A stretch of 64,000 bases of DNA from IMG/VR virus record IMGVR_UViG_2837719392_000001. The stretch is one strand, 5' to 3'. The DNA comes from a virus. Taxonomy: Duplodnaviria; Heunggongvirae; Uroviricota; Caudoviricetes. This document shows positions 1,285-29,159 of this stretch, piece by piece. Position 1 is the stretch's first letter. Each line of letters starts with the position of its first letter. The notes below the pieces were generated by a model. That model searched no databases. It saw only the letters and a program-made list of their open reading frames with translations, and had not been told where the DNA came from. Made by a program: the position numbers and the translations under genes.

Positions 1285-3099
1285 CTAAGCTCTATCAACT
1301 TCTATAACATTGTATCTTGGTCCAACCCCATTAAAATCAGTATATCCGACTTCAATCAGATAATTGACATTGGCCTTTTTATCCTTCTTTCTTTGATATG
1401 TTTCGGCACGGATTTCTCTAGCTTCATTTTCTGTGACATTATCTCTTTCCATGATTCGCTGAACATTATCACTCATTGTAAATGACTCTTCATTACAAAT
1501 CGGTTTAACATTTTTTAATCCTCCAAACAACCACAATTCTAAAGCTGGGAAGGATTTCTTTCCATGGTCAAAGACCATTTCATATTGCGTCATTTTAGCG
1601 TGGTTAGACTTGTAATAGAGGTCAATTCTTGATACATTGAAACTCATTTTTGCTATAGGCAAAGGCAATCCGTTTCCAAATGGCTTCAATTTCTTAATCT
1701 CTTCTACAAAAGCCAATCTTTCCTTGCGATTATGGATTTGAACATAAGTCTTTTCAATAACCTTACCTTGTTCTTGCTTTTCCACACTCTCGCAAAACTC
1801 TTGTTTAAACTCTTCCAAATTTTCATCCAGCACGGTCAACCCTGCTGCATCGGCATGTCCTCCATATGCATATAGCAAATGTTTTCTGTCATCAATGTCT
1901 TGAAGAGTATCATACAAGTTGATAAGCGAGTTTCCTCTTGCTGAACCTTTCCAGGCCTTTTGACCATCCACCATACAGTCTGTCATGACTAGAGTCGTCT
2001 TATTATTTTCATTCATGTAAGCACCAGCCAAAATCCCAATAATTCCCTCATGGATTCCTTCTTGAGCAATAAAATTGACTGATGTTGATTCATCAAGATG
2101 GATTCTTTCCATAGTCTGTTTTTTGATGTCCTTTCTTTCTTCATTTAAAAAGACAATAAATGAGCAGGCTCTTCTGGCATCTTCTTTATTATCAGTCGTT
2201 AAGAAATCAACTGCCAACTTAGCATCATGTAAACGTCCAACAGCATTGATGGCTGGCGCAATGGAAAATCCAATGGACTGCTCATCAAATGTTTCCTGAT
2301 TCACTTCCTGATAATCCATAAGCATTTTAAGATGCCAGTCGGGTTCAGTCTGGATAGACTTGATTCCATCCTTTAACCATTTTCTATTCTCATTGACCTG
2401 TGATAAGTCTTCATCAGCTGATGCAATAGGCATGACGTCTGAAACAATGGTCAAAGCTGAAAGCTGTAATAGGTATTTTCGAAGATTGTCTTTCTTCTTC
2501 TTTAAAGCCTTGCTATTATCCAATAACAAGCTTGCAACCTTATATGCAACCTGTGCCCCACTGATGTATGGGAATGGATATGCTCCAATTTGAGGATGCA
2601 CGATGAGATTGGCATTTGGCAAGACTGATGATGGTGTATGATGGTCGGTAACGTATACATACAATCCTTTCTCTCTTGCATAGTCAATAACCTCATGACA
2701 GGCAATTCCATTATCACAGGTTAAGATAGCCTTGATATTATCATCTAGAGCCTTATCTATCATCTCCTTGCATAATCCATACCCATTTCTGATACGATGA
2801 GGGATATCATAATCCACTCTAGCATGAATGAATGTTAAAGCAAGGTATAAGATAGAAGTTGCTCCTACACCATCCATATCATAATCTCCCATAATTCTGA
2901 TTTTTTCATTGTTTTTGATGTGAGTTTGAAGAGCTTCGCATAACTCTACACAATTATCCAATAACTTTGGCGAATGCAACTCACAGGGGTTGTAGAGAGT
3001 TTGGATGGATTTTTGGGAGAATCCTAAATGCGTTAACCATTCATCCATCTGAACATTGTCTACAAGTCCGCTTGTTTTATCTAATTCCTTCCAGTTCAT
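1285..3099 (-). CDS. recJ: single-stranded-DNA-specific exonuclease RecJ (DHH/DHHA1 family)
   Basis: 604 aa. DHH motifs (IMGDYDMDGVGATSIL, VTDHH) and GGHADAAG. AGGAGGAG RBS. Confidence 0.9.
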   Translation of the reverse strand: MNWKELDKTSGLVDNVQMDEWLTHLGFSQKSIQTLYNPCELHSPKLLDNCVELCEALQTHIKNNEKIRIMGDYDMDGVGATSILYLALTFIHARVDYDIPHRIRNGYGLCKEMIDKALDDNIKAILTCDNGIACHEVIDYAREKGLYVYVTDHHTPSSVLPNANLIVHPQIGAYPFPYISGAQVAYKVASLLLDNSKALKKKKDNLRKYLLQLSALTIVSDVMPIASADEDLSQVNENRKWLKDGIKSIQTEPDWHLKMLMDYQEVNQETFDEQSIGFSIAPAINAVGRLHDAKLAVDFLTTDNKEDARRACSFIVFLNEERKDIKKQTMERIHLDESTSVNFIAQEGIHEGIIGILAGAYMNENNKTTLVMTDCMVDGQKAWKGSARGNSLINLYDTLQDIDDRKHLLYAYGGHADAAGLTVLDENLEEFKQEFCESVEKQEQGKVIEKTYVQIHNRKERLAFVEEIKKLKPFGNGLPLPIAKMSFNVSRIDLYYKSNHAKMTQYEMVFDHGKKSFPALELWLFGGLKNVKPICNEESFTMSDNVQRIMERDNVTENEAREIRAETYQRKKDKKANVNYLIEVGYTDFNGVGPRYNVIEVDRA

Positions 3100-3608
3100 C
3101 TTGACTCCTCCTTTATGATTCTTTTGAGTTCTGAAGCGAATATCCAGTCGGGAAGTTCATAGTGGACGGTATGCCCTTTCCATGTTCCCTTTGTAAAGTT
3201 AATATTGTTGACAAGTTTAATTCCTGTCATGTTATGTAAAGCAACATCTTCCAGATTCTTTGTATAGTCATCAAGCAAGTATGACTCATGTGAATTATCA
3301 CTTGAATTCATGTAATGGCTCTTTTGCTTGCCATAGGGAACATAGATTCTATCTTTTTTATCAATAAACGGTAGATATTTATCAACAAGCTGATTCTTTT
3401 CTTCCAGAATGTAATCTCTGTCCAGACATGATGACAATATCTTGAGTTTCACATCTGGATTCTCTTTATGGAAAGTCTTAATCCCTCTAATGACATTATC
3501 GAATGGATAAAGTGATGAGAAAAAGCCTCTTTCCAGTATTTCATCCAGTGATGCATCCTTTTTAAATTCAAAACATGTTCCATCTAAATCTATATATAAT
3601 GTTTTCAT
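3096..3608 (-). CDS. HAD-superfamily 5'(3')-deoxyribonucleotidase-like protein (NT5C family)
   Basis: MKTLYIDLDGT HAD motif I. Start moved to the Met with AGGAGAG RBS (ORF track start 3656 lacks an RBS). 4-nt overlap with recJ. Confidence 0.6.
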   Translation of the reverse strand: MKTLYIDLDGTCFEFKKDASLDEILERGFFSSLYPFDNVIRGIKTFHKENPDVKLKILSSCLDRDYILEEKNQLVDKYLPFIDKKDRIYVPYGKQKSHYMNSSDNSHESYLLDDYTKNLEDVALHNMTGIKLVNNINFTKGTWKGHTVHYELPDWIFASELKRIIKEESR

Positions 3609-13459: not shown

Positions 13460-14031
13460 GTGTTTCGTATTAGCCTAAAAAAAGTTTCACGTGAAACGAA
13501 ATCCATCAAAAAACTCCCATCAATCCAACTTTTTTTAGACGTCTCCTCTACAAACACAGGAGTTGCTATCTTGTTGGAAGATGGAAGGGTGATGATGGAC
13601 TCAATCAACCTCAAAAGATTCCAAAGACCACCCTGTATGTCTTTGACAGATTATGAAAAGGTCAAGATAGGAGTCATCAAGGAATATCTAGATAAGCTTG
13701 AAGAGAAATACAGGATTGATTTGGTGTGTGTTGAGGGTATATTCATTCGCCCTGGATATAATCAATCTTCTCAAATCCTTCTCAAACTCCACGGATTTTT
13801 GATGGGATATTTTCTGGATACACCATTCATATCAATACCACCATCAAACATAAAAAAGCTATAGCAGGGAAGGGTAATGCAAAAAAGGAAGAAGTGAGAG
13901 GAAGATTAGAAGAGGTATATCAATATCATTTTCGAAGTGATGATGAAAGTGATGCAATGGCCCTGCTCGTTACTTACAAAGGCCATAGTCAATATCAAAT
14001 AGAACAGAAGGAGGATACTTATGGAATATGA
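13460..14031 (+). pseudogene. RuvC-family Holliday-junction resolvase (phage-type). Frameshifted in an A6 run at 13852-13857.
   Basis: N-terminal LDVSSTNTGVAIL (RuvC motif I) in frame 1, ending at 13864. The C-terminal KKAIAGKGNAKKEEV...SDDESDAMALLV (RuvC motif IV) continues in the +2 frame to TGA at 14029-14031. Confidence 0.65.
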
Positions 14032-14608
14032 TACATTATATAAAGAAGTGCTAGGTAGACTGGATGCTTATAAGGACAATGAAAAGAAGATAAAAGACAC
14101 AGATGTCAATAAAAAAGCTTTTAATAAGATGTTATATAAGTATGAGGTTAATAACCAGACAGAAGAATTATCTGATGAGTTCAAGGAAAGTATTCAGTTG
14201 TTAAAGGATTCTGGATTAAGCTTGAACGATATCTTAACTGTACTTACTGTTTCAAGCAAAGAGATGAAACCTTTTTTAACCGAGGCTAAAAATGAGTTAA
14301 AAACTTTAGCAGAAACGAATGAAGAATTATATCAGGAAATTGGAAAGGTCATGTTGGAAGATGACAAAATGACTGAAAGAAGTATGCACTTCCCACATAT
14401 TGGAACAGTCAAAGTTGTAAGAGAAAAAGAAGTTAACATCACAGATGAAGACAAACTGATTGTTGAATTAGCAAAGAATAAAGACTGGCGAAATAAATAT
14501 TTAAAGATTTCAAAGACTGTCACAAAATTACCAGAGGCAAAAGATGGATTAATTGATGGAATCTCAATTGAAGAGAAATTCAAGGTCACAGTGAAGGCAG
14601 ATAAATAA
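14021..14608 (+). CDS. hypothetical coiled-coil protein (phage recombination-module context)
   Basis: 195-aa ORF, K/E-rich. Confidence 0.45.
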   Translation: MEYDTLYKEVLGRLDAYKDNEKKIKDTDVNKKAFNKMLYKYEVNNQTEELSDEFKESIQLLKDSGLSLNDILTVLTVSSKEMKPFLTEAKNELKTLAETNEELYQEIGKVMLEDDKMTERSMHFPHIGTVKVVREKEVNITDEDKLIVELAKNKDWRNKYLKISKTVTKLPEAKDGLIDGISIEEKFKVTVKADK

Positions 14609-19455: not shown

Positions 19456-21078
19456 ATGGACAAATATTATAAATATGAAGACAAAATAGTCAATTCCTTT
19501 CTTTTTGTACCAAAGTTCTTGTTTTCTGACGAACGCTTTATGAAGTTAAGTGTCACAGAGAAACTGATTTATTCCTTATATCTACACAGATATACAATAA
19601 GCCAATATCATGACGAGATAGGACGATATATCATTTTTACTGATGATGATATTGTTGACAAACTTTACATCACTTCAAGGACTTGTATCAGAGCTAGAAA
19701 AAAACTCGAAGAAGCAAATCTCATCAAAATCCAAAAAACTCTAACATATAACAAAATCTATCTTGTTAATGTACTTAAAGCTTCTGAAAGTGAACATTTC
19801 TTTAACGAAAATGATTTGGAGGGATTAAAATTTTATCAGTTCCCAAGAGAATTCTTTGAAGATACTTATAAAAACTTAACACTGAATGCCAAGATGGTCT
19901 ATACAGTTTTTCTAGATACTTTAACTCTTAGTCAAATGAATTACTTTGTAGATTCTAACAAAAGGATTTATTTTCAGGAGAACATGGACATACAGATAAA
20001 AAAACTAAATCTAACAAAGCCAACAATACGTGAGGCAAGATACCTCTTGATGGTATGTGGATTGTTGTTAGAGTATAAAACATTCACTGAAGATATCAGA
20101 TATTATCCATTAAAGTTGTCTCACTTTACAGATAGAACTGCTGAATATAAAAAATGTAAAACAGCAAAAGAGAAGAAAGAATTTATAGAGATGACAACAA
20201 AACAAGACAAAGATGAGTTAATACTGAATCCATTAAAAATAGGTGTAAAACTTAAGGACTATAGAAAAGACGCAGGACTTACACAGACAAGACTAATCTC
20301 TTTATTAAGAGAAAAAAATGTAGATATTACTCAGCAGACTTATTCTTCATATGAAAATGGAAAGTTACATATCAAAAAAGAACTTTATGATATCTGTTTA
20401 GAGTGCATACAGGACGAAAAGAAAAAATTGTCTGAGTATACAAGACCAAAAGAAAATATTGTCATGAATGACAACTCTAAAGAAAAAAATTGTCATGACA
20501 TACAAGCTGAAAACAAAGAAATGTCATTAGTGGAAGAAAAATTATTCACGAATGAAAAGAAAGAATTGACATCTCCTGAAAGAAAAGAAAGTCATATAAA
20601 TTATACTTATACAAACAAAAAAGAAAATAATTATAATGAAAAATTAATAGAATTAATTAATTATATTAATAACATTATAAATACTTCACATATTCTTTTA
20701 GAAGAAAAAGATTACTTAACTGCATGTTTTGATAAGCTTCGTATATATAAACGATTCTATCTCAATACTTCACAAGAACTATTCACAACAGAAAGATTAT
20801 ATGAAGTCTTACAGAAGATGAATGAAAGAAATAAAGTTGAAGAGGTGTGTTTGAAGATTTTAGATAGAATTGAAACTAGCCATTATCAATTTAAGACACC
20901 TGATTCAGCCATCAATTGTTTTATTACTTTCTTGCTTAATGAACTAAAAGTAGAGGAAAAACAAGCTGATGATGTCCCAGAATGGTTTTCTAAAAAGAAA
21001 TTTCAGTTTGGTAGATTACCTGAACGTCATGTTGATGTATCTGATGATATAAAAAATTTAAAATGGTGGGAGGATTAA
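19456..21078 (+). CDS. RepA_N-family plasmid replication initiator. Duplicated RepA_N module plus central XRE-type HTH and long K/E/N-rich C-terminus.
   Basis: YKYEDKIVNSFLFVPKFLFSDERFMKLSVTEKLIYSLYLHRY matches the RepA_N signature. Second copy YQFPREFFEDTYKNLTLNAKMVYTVFLD. AAAGGAGG RBS. Confidence 0.7.
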   Translation: MDKYYKYEDKIVNSFLFVPKFLFSDERFMKLSVTEKLIYSLYLHRYTISQYHDEIGRYIIFTDDDIVDKLYITSRTCIRARKKLEEANLIKIQKTLTYNKIYLVNVLKASESEHFFNENDLEGLKFYQFPREFFEDTYKNLTLNAKMVYTVFLDTLTLSQMNYFVDSNKRIYFQENMDIQIKKLNLTKPTIREARYLLMVCGLLLEYKTFTEDIRYYPLKLSHFTDRTAEYKKCKTAKEKKEFIEMTTKQDKDELILNPLKIGVKLKDYRKDAGLTQTRLISLLREKNVDITQQTYSSYENGKLHIKKELYDICLECIQDEKKKLSEYTRPKENIVMNDNSKEKNCHDIQAENKEMSLVEEKLFTNEKKELTSPERKESHINYTYTNKKENNYNEKLIELINYINNIINTSHILLEEKDYLTACFDKLRIYKRFYLNTSQELFTTERLYEVLQKMNERNKVEEVCLKILDRIETSHYQFKTPDSAINCFITFLLNELKVEEKQADDVPEWFSKKKFQFGRLPERHVDVSDDIKNLKWWED

Positions 21079-22132: not shown

Positions 22133-22161
22133 TTGACACAATATCATTTATATGATATAAT
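22133..22161 (+). promoter_or_regulatory. consensus sigma-A promoter for the tRNA array: TTGACA - 17 nt - TGaTATAAT
   Basis: Exact -35 and -10 hexamers with 17-nt spacer and extended -10 TG. Confidence 0.7.
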
Positions 22162-22521: not shown

Positions 22522-22661
22522 TGGTCCTTTAGCTCAGTAGGTAGAGCAGATGACTGTTATACATCACTACATCAAATAAAGACAGTTAAGTACGTGATGT
22601 ATGTCAACACTTTGTGTTGACAAATCATAGCTTGCAGGTTCGAATCCTGTAGGGACCACCA
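22522..22661 (+). tRNA. tRNA-Asn (GTT) gene interrupted by about 67-nt insertion at the 3' side of the anticodon loop (about 22559-22625)
   Basis: 5' half GGTCCTT-TA-GCTC-AGTAGGTA-GAGC-A-GATGA-CTGTTA. 3' half TCATA-GCTT-GCAGG-TTCGAAT-CCTGT-AGGGACC-A-CCA. Near-identical to the intact paralog at 23946. Insert has two perfect hairpins. Confidence 0.6.
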
Positions 22662-23551: not shown

Positions 23552-23682
23552 ACGTCCTTAGCTCAGAGGAAAGAGCACGCGCCTTCTACATTGCAATCTG
23601 TAGATAGCAAGACATTGAAAATCAATCAAGTTGATTTTCATATAAGCGTGATGTCGAAGGTTCGACTCCTTCAGGGCGTACC
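23552..23682 (+). tRNA. tRNA-Arg (TCT) gene interrupted by a 55-nt insertion (about 23590-23644) between anticodon-loop position 38 and the 3' anticodon stem
   Basis: 5' exon ACGTCCT-TA-GCTC-AGAGGAAA-GAGC-A-CGCGC-CTTCTAC. 3' exon GCGTG-ATGTC-GAAGG-TTCGACT-CCTTC-AGGGCGT-A-CCA. All other arms canonical. Insert has hairpins TCTACA/TGTAGA (pairs with anticodon) and GAAAATCAA/TTGATTTTC. Confidence 0.65.
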
Positions 23683-24100: not shown

Positions 24101-24176
24101 GGACATTTAGCTCAGGTGGTAGAGAGGATGATTATTAAAAATCATCAAGTCGGAGGTTCAAATCCTCCAATGTCCA
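24101..24176 (+). tRNA. tRNA-like gene. Paralog of the CAT tRNA at 22849 but with an enlarged anticodon loop (GATGA-TTATTAAAAA-TCATC) and no encoded CCA. Possible pseudogene or unconventional decoder.
   Basis: Acceptor GGACATT/AATGTCC, T-arm GGAGG-TTCAAAT-CCTCC. 10 nt between the 5-bp anticodon stem halves. D-stem has one mismatch. Confidence 0.4.
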
Positions 24177-24186
24177 CTTCTTTCGT

Positions 24187-24267: not shown

Positions 24268-24346
24268 GGGGAATGGGAATGCTAGGAGTGTTCACCTGCC
24301 TTGCAAGCAGGAATGCAGATGGGTTCAAATCCCATATTCTCCACCA
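24268..24346 (+). tRNA. tRNA-Ala (TGC)
   Basis: G3-U70 identity pair, stem CCTGC/GCAGG, loop CTTGCAA, slightly long variable region, CCA. Confidence 0.7.
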
Positions 24347-24353
24347 AAAATCT

Positions 24354-24429
24354 AGGAGCGTAGCACAAAGGTGAATGCACACGACCGATAATCGTGCGAC
24401 TGCAAGTTCGAGTCTTGCCGTTCCTACCA
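24354..24429 (+). tRNA. tRNA-Ile (GAT) with C at position 33
   Basis: Acceptor AGGAGCG/CGTTCCT, stem CACGA/TCGTG, loop CCGATAA, CCA. Confidence 0.65.
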
Positions 24430-24432
24430 TAT

Positions 24433-24504
24433 CATCTGTAGCTTATATGGTAAAGCCACAGCCGTTAGTGCTGGGGAAGTTTGGTTCGACTCCAGACCAG
24501 ATGC
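24433..24504 (+). tRNA. tRNA-like gene with aberrant anticodon loop (CGTTAGT, G at position 33, possible TTA/TAG-type anticodon). No CCA.
   Basis: Acceptor CATCTGT/CCAGATG (6 bp), D-arm GCTT/AAGC, T-arm TTTGG-TTCGACT-CCAGA. Anticodon stem has only 4 bp. Confidence 0.35.
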
Positions 24505-24918
24505 CGGAGTTAAGGATTCTCTGAGAAAAATCTATATTGGAAAGGACCACGGTGAGGAATTGTACGCGAAAGCCATGCAACACTATTCCAAATCCGAAAG
24601 CATCTAGCTAATGCCTTGTTGGTCTGAGTTTCAAGTGCGAGGTTGGGGCAGCTTGAACAAGAAATCGTATGGGAATAAAAAATCTGACGACAGCCGGATT
24701 GACAATATATTTCCGTCCTGTATAGGTAAAAGTGGTTTGATGTGAACCGTCAAAAGAAAAAACATCGCTGTCAAATACCGAACAAAGGAGAAGAGTAGGT
24801 AAAAGACAAACCAGAATCCTTGAGGCTATTAACCTCTATTTGAATATCATTGAATAAGTTAATGGTCGACAGTCCATTGGGTAACTCCATAGGAGCACTG
24901 TTAGGTCTTTTCTTTTAT
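24505..24918 (+). ncRNA. candidate structured non-coding RNA (about 410 nt) between tRNA genes. Identity unknown.
   Basis: No plausible ORF on either strand. GC content clearly above flanking DNA. Many short complementary segments. Lies inside the tRNA transcription unit. Confidence 0.3.
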
Positions 24919-24995
24919 AGCAGAATGGCGAAAATGGTAGACGCACAGGACTTTGACTCCTGCATTTGGAGGTTCGAACCCTTCTTCTGCTGCCA
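24919..24995 (+). tRNA. tRNA-Gln (TTG)
   Basis: Acceptor AGCAGAA/TTCTGCT, stem CAGGA/TCCTG, loop CTTTGAC, discriminator G, CCA. Confidence 0.8.
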
Positions 24996-25017
24996 AAATA
25001 CTCAAATGGGGTGATAG

Positions 25018-25604
25018 ATTTGTCAACTTATTATGATTATTATGTTTTTATTAAAAAGGATAATGAGTTTAAGTATGCTGGATACTATGATATTTCTGGC
25101 AAACCCCTTCCCATATATTATCATACCCGTAGCTTCTCATACGGTTTCTTAGATTATGGACAATATGTCGATGACCCAGATAAATATGGTATCCATTTAC
25201 CAAACGAAGGTGATGAGGAAGATGAAGCCAGATTCGGTTACGTTTTCCAATTACCAGATATAGAAGCCATTCCAGACAGAAGCCATAAAGAAGCCTATAT
25301 ATATAAAACACTGAAAAGAGATATGGAAATTAATCATTTCGAATATGACATAGAAGAATATTTGGAAAATGATGAAGAATCTGTCGATGGACATTCACTT
25401 GTTATTTGCAAGAGTGAATTTGATAGACTATCCATAGAAGAACAAAAGAAATACTTTTATTATAAGTGGATTGATTATGAAGATATGTCCTACCATAGAA
25501 ATATTCTATGCACCATCATCAATAACTGGATAAATATAAGACAATTCAAAGAATTTAAAGATATAGATAAAAAGGACATATATGTCATTGCCTTTGGAGG
25601 ATAG
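25018..25604 (+). CDS. hypothetical acidic protein (D/E/Y-rich)
   Basis: ORF 24966..25604, trimmed so it does not overlap tRNA-Gln. Probable TTG/GTG start after a GGGGTGA RBS. Start uncertain. Confidence 0.35.
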
Positions 25605-25617
25605 GGAGGTGATGTAA

Positions 25618-26340
25618 GTGCAATGTAAAATTTATAGACGCACTTGGTCGTTGAAAAGAAAGTATCAACAAGAAGCTTTATTTTTTGACATTGATTCCTT
25701 CTTTCTTCCATATTATAAAAGATGCCATTTAAAAGCGTACAATCGTCCCCAATTTTGGTGGGCAACAGAATGGAATCTTATCTGTGATGAATTCAATCCT
25801 GAAGAATATAAAGATATTGAGTGGTTTCGAAAGAATGTTGCGGGACGCTTTGTGTCTCCTAAAGCGCTTAAATATATTCCATTTGCCAAATCAGATGATG
25901 ATTTCCCTGTACATGAAATAGATGAAATAGAAGTGGTACAATATAAGGTTGTTGATGAATATGGATATCCTATAAGTATGGATGTCTATATTAGTGATTA
26001 TATTGAAGAAAATATCAAAAGATACAAGAACTCATATAGTTTAAACAATCATCATTGTTATCCATCTCTACGCTACTACTGGCGACATCCTCAAACGACA
26101 AATGAAAAAAGACAACAGTTATCTAAAGAAGAAAAAAGATATTATCAAGAAAATGGATGGCATATGAAAGAGCGTTCTAAAAGAAATGCAAGAAATCTGC
26201 CAGATTTATTCGATGATAAATTCATTCATGTTGACAAATGCTGGAAATCTCAGACTCGTCAGCCTCGACAATATTTGAGAAACAAAAGAGCCAAAAGAAA
26301 AAGAATTCATGGAGAGGAATACAGGAATTTTATGGGGTGA
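25618..26340 (+). CDS. hypothetical basic protein
   Basis: GTG start after GGAGGTGA RBS. 240 aa, K/R/Y/W-rich. Confidence 0.4.
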   Translation: MQCKIYRRTWSLKRKYQQEALFFDIDSFFLPYYKRCHLKAYNRPQFWWATEWNLICDEFNPEEYKDIEWFRKNVAGRFVSPKALKYIPFAKSDDDFPVHEIDEIEVVQYKVVDEYGYPISMDVYISDYIEENIKRYKNSYSLNNHHCYPSLRYYWRHPQTTNEKRQQLSKEEKRYYQENGWHMKERSKRNARNLPDLFDDKFIHVDKCWKSQTRQPRQYLRNKRAKRKRIHGEEYRNFMG

Positions 26341-27683: not shown

Positions 27684-28129
27684 TTTTATACTTACAGTTT
27701 TCTCTTTATGCCAGCATTGTGATGAAACCTCCTCGTGGTTGCTGGTGGGTCGCGCTAATATCATCACAAGAAACAGACATATGGCTGAAAATCCTTTCAA
27801 CGGGATAAGGCACACTTGCTTCATGGTGGGTGGAATTCCCATTATAGAAACTCGATTGAGATATAACATAAAGTGGTTCCAAGATGAACAATGCCGTTTG
27901 TAAATTGGCTGTGCGGACAAGGCTTTCCTATCCGGGTAACAAGGAAAGGGAAATCCTTCTGGTGATGCAAATGTCGAGGCACAGGCTCCATGGTAGAAAA
28001 ATCCAGAGAAGAAAAACATATGGTGATATATTCTGTAGTTGATGCCATGGTTGGAGGTCACAGAGTCCTTCTTTTATGCAATGAAAGCAAACGAGGAGCA
28101 GCTTGTTGAGGTATGTACGTCTGTTTTAT
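27684..28129 (+). ncRNA. candidate structured non-coding RNA (about 440 nt) upstream of tRNA-Gln(CTG). Identity unknown.
   Basis: Only Cys/His-rich nonsense ORFs on both strands. GC-rich relative to flanks. Adjacent to tRNA. Confidence 0.3.
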
Positions 28130-28204: not shown

Positions 28205-28282
28205 AAAAAATTTCAAAATTAGCAATTCATGATAAAATGATAGTGGTAATCCTAATATCAGGAGCCACTATAATAGAAGATG

Positions 28283-28446
28283 GTAGCAGGGAACTATCAT
28301 CTTCACTATTACATTAAAAAAAAGGAGAAAGATGATAGAAAACCACTATCATCTTAACTACTCTATTATAAAAGAGATGATAGAAGGTCACTATCATCTT
28401 CACTATACTATGACATTATTGATGATAGAAAACCAGTATCATCTTC
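28283..28446. repeat. tandem hairpin repeats: three 45-bp units (28331, 28376, 28421) each containing GATGATAGAAAACCACTATCATCTT (stem GATGATAG/CTATCATC), plus a degenerate copy at about 28283
   Basis: Direct inspection shows a 45-nt period. Repeat about 25 nt, inter-repeat 20 nt. Confidence 0.6.
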
Positions 28447-28880: not shown

Positions 28881-29159
28881 AGAAAATTTCAAGCGTGAAG
28901 GGTATCTCTTGCAGATAGCATCCTTTTAAAAAGTAAGTCATATTATAAAGTATATAAGGATACTCTTTTACTCGCTATCAGATAGCTTGAAATTTGTGAA
29001 CGTACTTTTCTGTTGTGTGCTTTCCTTGGAAAGCATTTGATGTAGCATCCTTTTAATTCTAAAAAACGGAAGATTGGGGAAGCAGAAAAGCTTATTGCTA
29101 CAAGATAGTTCGCATGGGGCTTTATGCCCCTTTTCTTTGTATATAAGGAGGTATAAAAC

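Follow-up and report, generated by a model that had tools for sequence, protein, structure and literature searches.

The tRNA array and its gap

This study concerns a candidate large structured RNA in the IMG/VR virus record IMGVR_UViG_2837719392_000001 (Caudoviricetes), a stretch of 64,000 nucleotides (nt) that is called the window here and to which all positions refer unless a contig is named. Between 22273 and 28600, the window carries a tRNA array in which ARAGORN recognises 26 tRNA-type genes, all on the + strand, and to which Rfam adds two insert-bearing tRNAs. Within this array, a gap of 413 nt separates the gene called 'tRNA-Stop(tta)' by ARAGORN (24433-24505), treated below as a tRNA-like structure (TLS), from tRNA-Gln(UUG) (24919-24995, + strand, ARAGORN; 58.2 bits with the Rfam tRNA model). 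The gap (24506-24918, + strand) is termed the segment, its proposed transcript the segment RNA, and positions 24542-24910 the core. An initial annotation, made from the sequence alone, had placed a GC-rich candidate non-coding RNA (ncRNA) free of open reading frames (ORFs) between a tRNA-like gene and tRNA-Gln(UUG), and the ARAGORN coordinates agree with that siting. The segment is co-oriented with the tRNA operon.

The GC content of the segment is 0.40 (5' domain, 0.49; middle, 0.36; 3' domain, 0.39), compared with a mean of 0.322 (standard deviation 0.043) for 413-nt windows outside the array, of which just 0.3% attain 0.42, and with a mean of 0.52 for the array tRNAs. The segment is thus GC-enriched, as the initial annotation had noted, by about two standard deviations, though less than the tRNAs are. 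The description as ORF-free stands in the sense that no ORF is conserved, but small ORFs do touch the segment. The longest overlapping one encodes 54 amino acids and extends into the tRNA, and those lying wholly inside do not exceed 47. None is kept across lineages. Indels of 4, 5, 2 and 3 nt and a deletion of about 70 nt exclude that any reading frame is conserved.

Homologous loci and conservation

Homologues were obtained by protein homology searches with the flanking proteins and retrieval of the contigs encoding the matches. Relatives of RepA and of the two proteins downstream of the segment were found in Logan/ENA metagenome assemblies only; a search of IMG/VR for related loci, by flanking proteins and RepA alignment, found none. 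The segment RNA is present in L003 (14877-15294; RepA 68% identical), in L033 and L034 (9499-9908 and 7761-8170; downstream protein 93% identical), in L038 (35-447; 84%) and in L035 (200-538; 73%), and in truncated form in L039-L046.

Conservation is mosaic. Between the window and L003, the 5' domain (24539-24659) is 91% identical at the DNA level, which exceeds every flanking gene (74-86%), while the tRNAs reach 93-97%. The 3' domain (24763-24912) is 80% identical. The middle (24660-24762), a variable domain between hairpins D and F (see below), is only 48% identical, rich in indels and nearly all deleted in L035. Since it differs so much between the clades and is almost wholly absent from one homologue, the middle domain appears to be a dispensable peripheral element.

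Two of the lineages have changed further. In L039 (2456-2600, likewise in L040-L046), the 5' domain is intact as far as hairpin D and is followed immediately by GUGGUCUUUGG; pairing of this string with UAAGGACCAC could restore the terminal helix P1. Beyond the string lie unrelated AT-rich sequence and then tRNA-Trp in place of tRNA-Gln. Either recombination left this form as a recent scar, or it is a minimal version of the segment RNA. In L035, the tRNA-Gln(UUG) downstream of the segment RNA (538-615) has decayed; the 3' strand of its acceptor stem is lost, and ARAGORN makes no call.

Consensus fold and covariation

The fold is the RNAalifold consensus, scored on 6 sequences, 74 pairs and 400 cells. 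It is a closed multi-helix structure of 12 helices without a supported pseudoknot. Standard pairs occupy 98.5% of the 400 cells and six cells are unpaired, whereas slid controls are paired in 24-44%. Double-sided changes are seen in seven pairs, which lie in hairpins D, F and G, and in 0-1 pairs of each of the six slid controls. About 14 additional pairs show one-sided, wobble-compatible changes. The covariation score is 0.124, compared with at most 0.048 for the slid controls and 0.091 ± 0.007 for shuffled alignments, none of the 500 shuffles reaching 0.124. Further compensated changes in hairpin G distinguish L035 from L003. Moreover, the segment RNA is assigned to the + strand, because dozens of G.U cells in the covarying helices would be A.C on the minus strand. 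The comparative covariation check proposed in the initial annotation thus shows helices maintained by compensatory changes among homologous loci, which, together with the mosaic conservation, supports its proposal of a large structured ncRNA. The inverted repeats quoted there are real helices as well; the GGTCTGAGTTTCAAG stretch includes hairpin D.

All elements of the fold lie on the + strand. Directly 3' of the TLS, a leader hairpin (CGGAG-loop-CUCUG, 24505-24523) has five predicted pairs, one of them with a one-sided change. It is kept in all lineages, and L033 and L039 retain it 5' of an insertion of about 430 nt. The core is closed by P1, in which AAGGACC (24542-24548) pairs with GGUCUUU (24904-24910) in all five full-length sequences, with a G.U to G-C change. 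According to the alignment, P1 extends to 9 base pairs (bp) in the window and L033, with an A-U to G.U change, so that its length ranges over 7-9 bp. The 3' strand is followed by the tail UCUUUUAU as far as the tRNA.

Within the 5' domain, arm A (24550-24596) is a three-tier hairpin (CGG/CCG, GGAAU/AUUCC, GU/AC, GC/GC) with near-invariant stems and a variable apical loop, which reads GCGAAAGC or GC-UCC depending on the clade and has a 4-nt indel. The candidate hairpin B (GCAU-CUAGCUA-AUGC, 24600-24614) is invariant in the six sequences, including the 6-nt palindrome UAGCUA of its loop (24605-24610). Hairpin D (UUCAAGYGC-GAGGUUGGG-GCARCUUGAA, 24630-24657) has two covarying pairs, one changing from U-A to C-G and the other found as U.G, C-G or U-A. 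Its 9-nt loop GAGGUUGGG (24639-24647) is again invariant in six sequences, and GAGGUUG in this loop forms a candidate pseudoknot with UAACCUC (24830-24836) that is pairable in all sequences and has no double changes.

The 3' domain consists of three hairpins. Hairpin F (UGUC/GACA, UACC/GGUA; 24769-24808) covaries from A-U to C-G and from C-G to U-A. Hairpin G (GGCUAUUAAC/GUUAAUGGUC and UAUUUGA/UUGAAUA; 24824-24867) has 17 bp in two tiers, with three double and four one-sided changes. In hairpin H (GACAGU/ACUGUU and CC..UGGG/UCCA..GG; 24868-24902), one side has changed in five pairs, each time in a wobble-compatible way, and no pair is broken.

Searches against known families and collections

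Covariance models of Rfam 15 were searched over the whole window at gathering score and over 24300-25100 at E≤10. The former search returned tRNAs only. The latter returned, besides tRNAs, just noise (NBR2, YrlA and permuted tmRNA), far under the gathering score and positioned over neighbouring tRNAs. At E≤10, detectable membership in the GOLLD, ROOL, HEARO, OLE, RNase P, tmRNA, group I and II intron, 6S and SRP families is excluded, and raiA is likewise without a match. The initial annotation had compared the segment with the GOLLD, ROOL and HEARO RNAs; the likeness in kind and the siting beside tRNAs hold, but membership does not. Of the outcomes that it had named as refuting, the lack of an Rfam hit was thus observed, whereas conservation is present.

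Sequence collections were equally silent. BLAST against 50,697 phage records matched only the flanking tRNA-Gln, and against 72,556 plasmid records there was no match to the segment. Exact-pattern scans of IMG/VR and JGI metagenomes were empty, and an 18-mer scan of GTDB genomes gave 25 matches in unrelated taxa, a count close to chance expectation.

Several candidates were considered and rejected. A tmRNA, or a two-piece tmRNA including the upstream TLS, is contradicted by the lack of a CCA end and of a tag frame and by the negative ARAGORN result; the Rfam tmRNA matches near the segment are weak (14.7 and 18.1 bits) and lie over neighbouring tRNAs. Decayed tRNA relics were dismissed as well, as the tRNA model finds nothing within the segment at E≤10. 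Visual inspection suggested a resemblance of GGAAAGGACC, AAUCCGAAAGC and GUUAGGUC to B. subtilis RNase P RNA. The models of bacterial types A and B and of archaeal RNase P RNA do not match 24300-25100 at E≤10; moreover, the RNase P-like motif GGNAAGGACC pairs with the 3' end as the terminal helix, not as an internal, pseudoknotted P4, and its third base varies among the homologues (A, G or U). Group I and II intron models gave no match either, and the segment is bordered by a TLS and a tRNA that are both complete. This intron negative is to be read with the caveat that Rfam is likewise silent on introns in the split dnaE gene of the window (see below).

ROOL in the same slot of distant relatives

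Two more distant relatives, L006 and L007, share the upstream gene order (RepA_N block) and have a RepA 47% identical to that of the window. Their tRNA arrays contain full-length ROOL RNA (RF03087; 303 bits, model positions 1-574). In L006, ROOL (13847-14421) lies between tRNA-Tyr and tRNA-Ile(gat)-tRNA-Gln(ttg), with the tRNAs 14-26 nt away, and in L007 (14188-14761) it lies upstream of tRNA-Gln(ttg). The order in the window is tRNA-Ile(gat), TLS, segment RNA and tRNA-Gln(ttg), and this match in tRNA order places the segment RNA in the ROOL slot.

No similarity between the two RNAs was detected in either direction. Neither in the window at its gathering score (99.1 bits) nor in 24300-25100 at E≤10 does the ROOL model have a hit. 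Covariance models built from the 5' domain (R1) and the 3' domain (R2) score members of their own family at 140-185 bits. With filters off, they return only noise (best 3.9 and 7.9 bits, E>0.6) on the ROOL-containing stretch 12700-16644 of L007, and they match nothing in the whole of L006 and L007 with default filters. Conserved strings of the ROOL consensus (e.g., ACAAUAGAC, GUAGCC, UCUGAAUG and GGUGAAAGUUG) are all missing from the segment RNA. The core measures about 369-375 nt (about 300 nt in L035), compared with 574-581 nt for ROOL.

ROOL and GOLLD are large RNAs without assigned function that often lie beside the tRNA islands of phages and prophages, and they form RNA-only, homo-oligomeric cages (PMC5737381, PMC12286853).

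The operon and a proposed route of release

A sigma-70 promoter (TTGACA-17-TATAAT with TG; 22133-22161, + strand) matches the consensus at 12 of 12 positions about 110 nt 5' of the first array tRNA, and it presumably drives the operon that includes the segment RNA. Terminator-like sites with an all-G-C stem occur only far downstream, the strongest on the + strand at 29116-29130. With this promoter and the only convincing + strand terminator after the array so far apart, the simplest assumption is that the tRNA operon transcript includes the segment RNA.

The TLS (24433-24504, + strand) is a cloverleaf without CCA, and the only array member that lacks an encoded CCA. In five lineages, its acceptor stem covaries (UA/CG/UG and GC/AU/GU) and its D and T arms are invariant, while the 'anticodon' loop measures 4-7 nt, has no conserved sequence and carries G at position 33. 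The Rfam tRNA model gives the L033 orthologue 18.4 bits, under the gathering score of 29 bits. To judge from these features, the TLS is a non-decoding tRNA-like element.

In Bacillus-type bacteria, RNase Z cuts tRNA precursors that lack CCA after the discriminator base, and RNase P cleaves the 5' end of every tRNA. By analogy, the tRNA-processing machinery probably excises the segment RNA. The RNA would be transcribed within the long tRNA operon from the promoter at 22133-22161. RNase Z would then cut 3' of the TLS, at about 24504, giving the 5' end, and RNase P would cut at 24918/24919, the 5' end of tRNA-Gln(UUG), giving the 3' end. The released RNA would span about 24505-24918 and have both ends locked by the P1 clamp except for a 37-nt leader with its hairpin (24505-24523). 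P1 would enclose the 5' domain with arm A, the UAGCUA loop and hairpin D, the variable middle and the three-hairpin 3' domain. Palindromes such as UAGCUA are of the motif type that mediates kissing-loop dimers; from this, a possible kissing-loop dimerisation site can be guessed at, and the segment RNA may self-associate through it.

Further RNA-like elements and unusual tRNAs of the array

A second ncRNA-like segment of about 430 nt (27700-28129) lies about 2.8 kb downstream, directly 5' of tRNA-Gln(CUG). It is 96-97% identical among the window, L033 and L003, compared with 74-86% in flanking genes, and occurs also in L035, where the tRNA following it has the anticodon UUG, not CUG. A closing helix of 12 bp is predicted (about 27770-27782 with 28116-28128), with double changes in three pairs. 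It contains AACCUCCUC, which resembles an anti-Shine-Dalgarno sequence. It had no Rfam match at E≤5 and no phage or plasmid match, and a paralogy test found no similarity to the segment RNA.

The insertion between the leader hairpin and the core mentioned above is also about 430 nt long, GC-rich and ORF-free. It occurs in L033 (9090-9525), L034 (7352-7787) and L039-L046 (2020-2455 in L039), is about 99% identical among its carriers and is absent from the window, L038, L003 and L035. An imperfect direct repeat (AACATAACAGAAT / AACATACAACAAT) bounds it. It had no Rfam match at E≤10, and the z-score of its minimum free energy (MFE) is +0.74.

Several tRNA genes of the array are unusual. Two of them, an Asn-like GUU gene (22523-22658) and an Arg UCU gene (23552-23680), were missed by ARAGORN and found by Rfam. 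In each, the 3' side of the anticodon loop harbours an insert (about 58-65 nt) that is too short to be a group I intron. L033 has these inserts too, and the syntenic tRNA-Arg(UCU) of L003 is uninterrupted. The tRNA at 24101-24177 has an enlarged anticodon loop (GAUGA-UUAUUAAAAA-UCAUC), and ARAGORN calls it Phe(aaa) in the window and a suppressor tRNA (tta) in the L033 and L039 orthologues. Finally, four copies of the 25-nt palindromic hairpin GATGATAGAAAACCACTATCATCTT lie between tRNA-Gln(CUG) and tRNA-Trp (28279-28445) at a spacing of 45-52 nt, terminator-like on the minus strand.

The host element

The window encodes a RepA_N initiator (19456-21078), ParA/ParB-like proteins, RecD2, RecJ and topoisomerase III as well as FtsH, flotillin, a MoxR/VWA pair, a radical-SAM protein and an RlaP nucleotidyltransferase. 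Plasmids of the RepA_N type are characteristic of low-GC Gram-positive hosts. No virion gene was found among the approximately 35 window proteins scanned, so the phage identity assumed in the initial annotation is unproven. The element, which has RepA_N, ParA/ParB, the polymerase III alpha subunit, RecD2, RecJ and topoisomerase III, resembles a giant plasmid or a phage-plasmid whose host is a low-GC Gram-positive bacterium. The gene for polymerase III alpha (dnaE, minus strand, 58065-63994) is in three pieces (62636-63994, 60590-61393 and 58065-59522), split by homing-endonuclease ORFs of the GIY-YIG (59622-60425) and HNH (61547-62275) types; at gathering score, Rfam finds no group I intron in this gene.

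The two proteins encoded downstream of the segment have no match in Pfam or PHROGs. Their AlphaFold models have predicted local distance difference test (pLDDT) scores of 55 and 64, and Foldseek found no match below E=1 in the PDB for the better-scoring model. The conserved 240-amino-acid protein two genes downstream (25618-26340) has a confidently modelled N-terminal core (pLDDT 80-93) for which the PDB offers no matching fold. Its C-terminal tail of about 90 residues is very basic and, by prediction, disordered, a hint of binding to nucleic acids. The 197-amino-acid protein following the segment RNA has a 59%-identical homologue in L036, a different element, about 1.5 kb from a gene for ToxN, a type III toxin (203-1030 and 2557-3138 for the homologue and the ToxN neighbourhood). 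Neither tRNAs nor a copy of the segment RNA lie near this homologue.

Interpretation and alternative explanations

On balance, we favour the view that the segment encodes a stable structured ncRNA of about 375-410 nt and of an undescribed family, with the core at 24542-24910 (+ strand), that is processed from the tRNA operon and is an analogue of ROOL and GOLLD. It is new as a family and related to ROOL and GOLLD in kind and position. By analogy with ROOL, which holds the same slot in the more distant relatives, it would be an abundant, trans-acting functional counterpart made alongside the tRNAs of the element. Few bacterial ncRNAs combine a length above 300 nt with a complex, conserved fold, and most of them have proved to be ribozymes or biochemically unusual. 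An unrelated structured RNA in the exact ROOL slot is a natural replacement experiment. The segment RNA probably does for the tRNA-rich element what ROOL does, or shows a possible substitute, and a comparison of the two could narrow the function down. In addition, the tRNA-punctuated operons of giant plasmids and phages are a place to look for more large RNAs.

Several observations weigh against this view. The sample comprises two to three independent lineages, in which the window, L033 and L038 are near-identical, as are L003 and L035. A single deep split therefore underlies most of the covariation, and the alignment used for scoring the fold also served to derive it. The MFE z-score of the segment is not significant (-0.86 on the + strand, +0.37 on the minus strand), so that comparative evidence, not thermodynamic stability, carries the structure signal. 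The stretch 24604-24627 has two alternative predicted pairings, a local hairpin and a long-range pairing of GGUCUGA with CCAGAAUCC (24811-24819); neither shows covariation, and the two are inseparable, as all bases involved are invariant. The 3' domain is conserved no more than the neighbouring genes. The L039 lineage, known from at least eight contigs of separate samples, has unrelated sequence in place of this domain, and L035 has lost the middle domain. The processing sites are derived from general tRNA biology, and a shared slot is no proof of a function common to the segment RNA and ROOL.

The alternatives differ in which of these facts they use. The segment could be a mere spacer or the remains of decayed tRNAs, its apparent structure arising from a few related sequences. 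The MFE z-score, the small number of lineages, the 3' domain that has diverged as much as the adjacent genes, the loss of whole domains in L035 and L039 and a GC content between those of tRNAs and background all fit a non-functional sequence. Nevertheless, nearly all substitutions in helices preserve pairing, with frequencies far from those of the slid controls, the 5' domain is conserved above any flanking gene, and the tRNA model is silent inside the segment; we regard this explanation as quite improbable. The chances are similarly slim that the segment RNA is a strongly diverged and shortened ROOL, a homologue and not just an analogue. Both RNAs occupy the same slot of the tRNA array and are closed by a terminal helix with tRNAs close on both sides. 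Yet the ROOL model, blank on the segment, scores 303 bits on the AT-rich relatives, R1 and R2 fail on the ROOL-bearing contigs L007 and L006, and the core is some 200 nt shorter (about 375 against 574-581 nt) and lacks the conserved ROOL strings.

A cis-acting 5' leader that controls or assists the maturation of tRNA-Gln, and that is not an independent RNA, would account for the fact that the segment RNA and 27700-28129 both end in UUUUAU directly 5' of a tRNA-Gln (UUG and CUG, respectively). This is unlikely, as L035 keeps both RNA domains with compensatory changes beside a decayed tRNA-Gln, the 5' domain retained in L039 precedes tRNA-Trp, and a many-helix tRNA leader of about 375 nt is without precedent. 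A mobile or self-splicing RNA, such as a group I-like intron or another ribozyme cassette, would suit an element rich in mobile insertions, in which dnaE is split by GIY-YIG and HNH ORFs and a 430-nt ORF-less element is present or absent by lineage immediately 5' of the core; the silence of Rfam counts for little here, because Rfam also misses introns in dnaE. However, there is no exon context between the complete TLS and the complete tRNA, the position is constant in all lineages, the ends pair together, unlike those of group I or II introns, and no intron or ribozyme model matches at E≤10. We hold this origin to be very improbable.

A broader and more tentative extension of the favoured reading is that, in this giant RepA_N lineage, the operon has exchanged ROOL for a group of unrelated closed RNAs (about 350-430 nt) that have not been described, namely the segment RNA, 27700-28129 and the 430-nt cassette, all excised by tRNA enzymes. 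This is possible, though we would not bet on it. If it were true, the tRNA islands of mobile elements would generally serve as launching sites for large functional RNAs that can replace one another, with several new RNA classes still to be discovered in them. The segment RNA would then be a new RNA of the ornate type that perhaps self-assembles or plays a part in translation or anti-defence.

Comparison with known systems

Like the RNAs of the ROOL and GOLLD kind, the segment RNA lies inside a tRNA array, here downstream of RepA_N. As with ROOL (RF03087), it is a large, ORF-free structured RNA in a tRNA island of a mobile element of low-GC bacteria (PMC5737381; PMC12286853). Both have a terminal closing helix, tRNAs within tens of nucleotides and a slot by tRNA-Ile(gat)/tRNA-Gln(ttg). 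In contrast, there is no detectable similarity in sequence or structure in either direction, and the segment RNA is simpler, being without established pseudoknots and having fewer multistem junctions and about 375 instead of about 580 nt. As for the assembly into nanocages known from ROOL and GOLLD, the only hint in the segment RNA is the invariant palindromic loop UAGCUA.

GOLLD (RF01998) is also associated with tRNA islands, with tRNAs beside or inside the locus, and is modular, with one part well and another poorly conserved (PMC12286853). The segment RNA does not match its model, and GOLLD often exceeds 800 nt; furthermore, the conserved half of GOLLD is the 3' one, whereas the 5' domain is the best conserved in the segment RNA.

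Bacterial RNase P RNA resembles the segment RNA in size class, in the terminal closing helix and in the link to tRNA genes, and the 5' motif GGAAAGGACC recalls its P4 strand GGAAAGUCC. The motif of the segment RNA is part of the terminal helix, however, and the other conserved regions are absent.

In mitochondrial tRNA punctuation and in the MALAT1-mascRNA pair, a tRNA-like cloverleaf beside a long ncRNA recruits RNase P or RNase Z. The segment RNA is likewise adjoined by a non-decoding cloverleaf that would define its end. It differs in the arrangement, with the TLS on the 5' side and a true tRNA on the 3' side, and in its setting in a bacterial operon, where the cleavage is a proposal.

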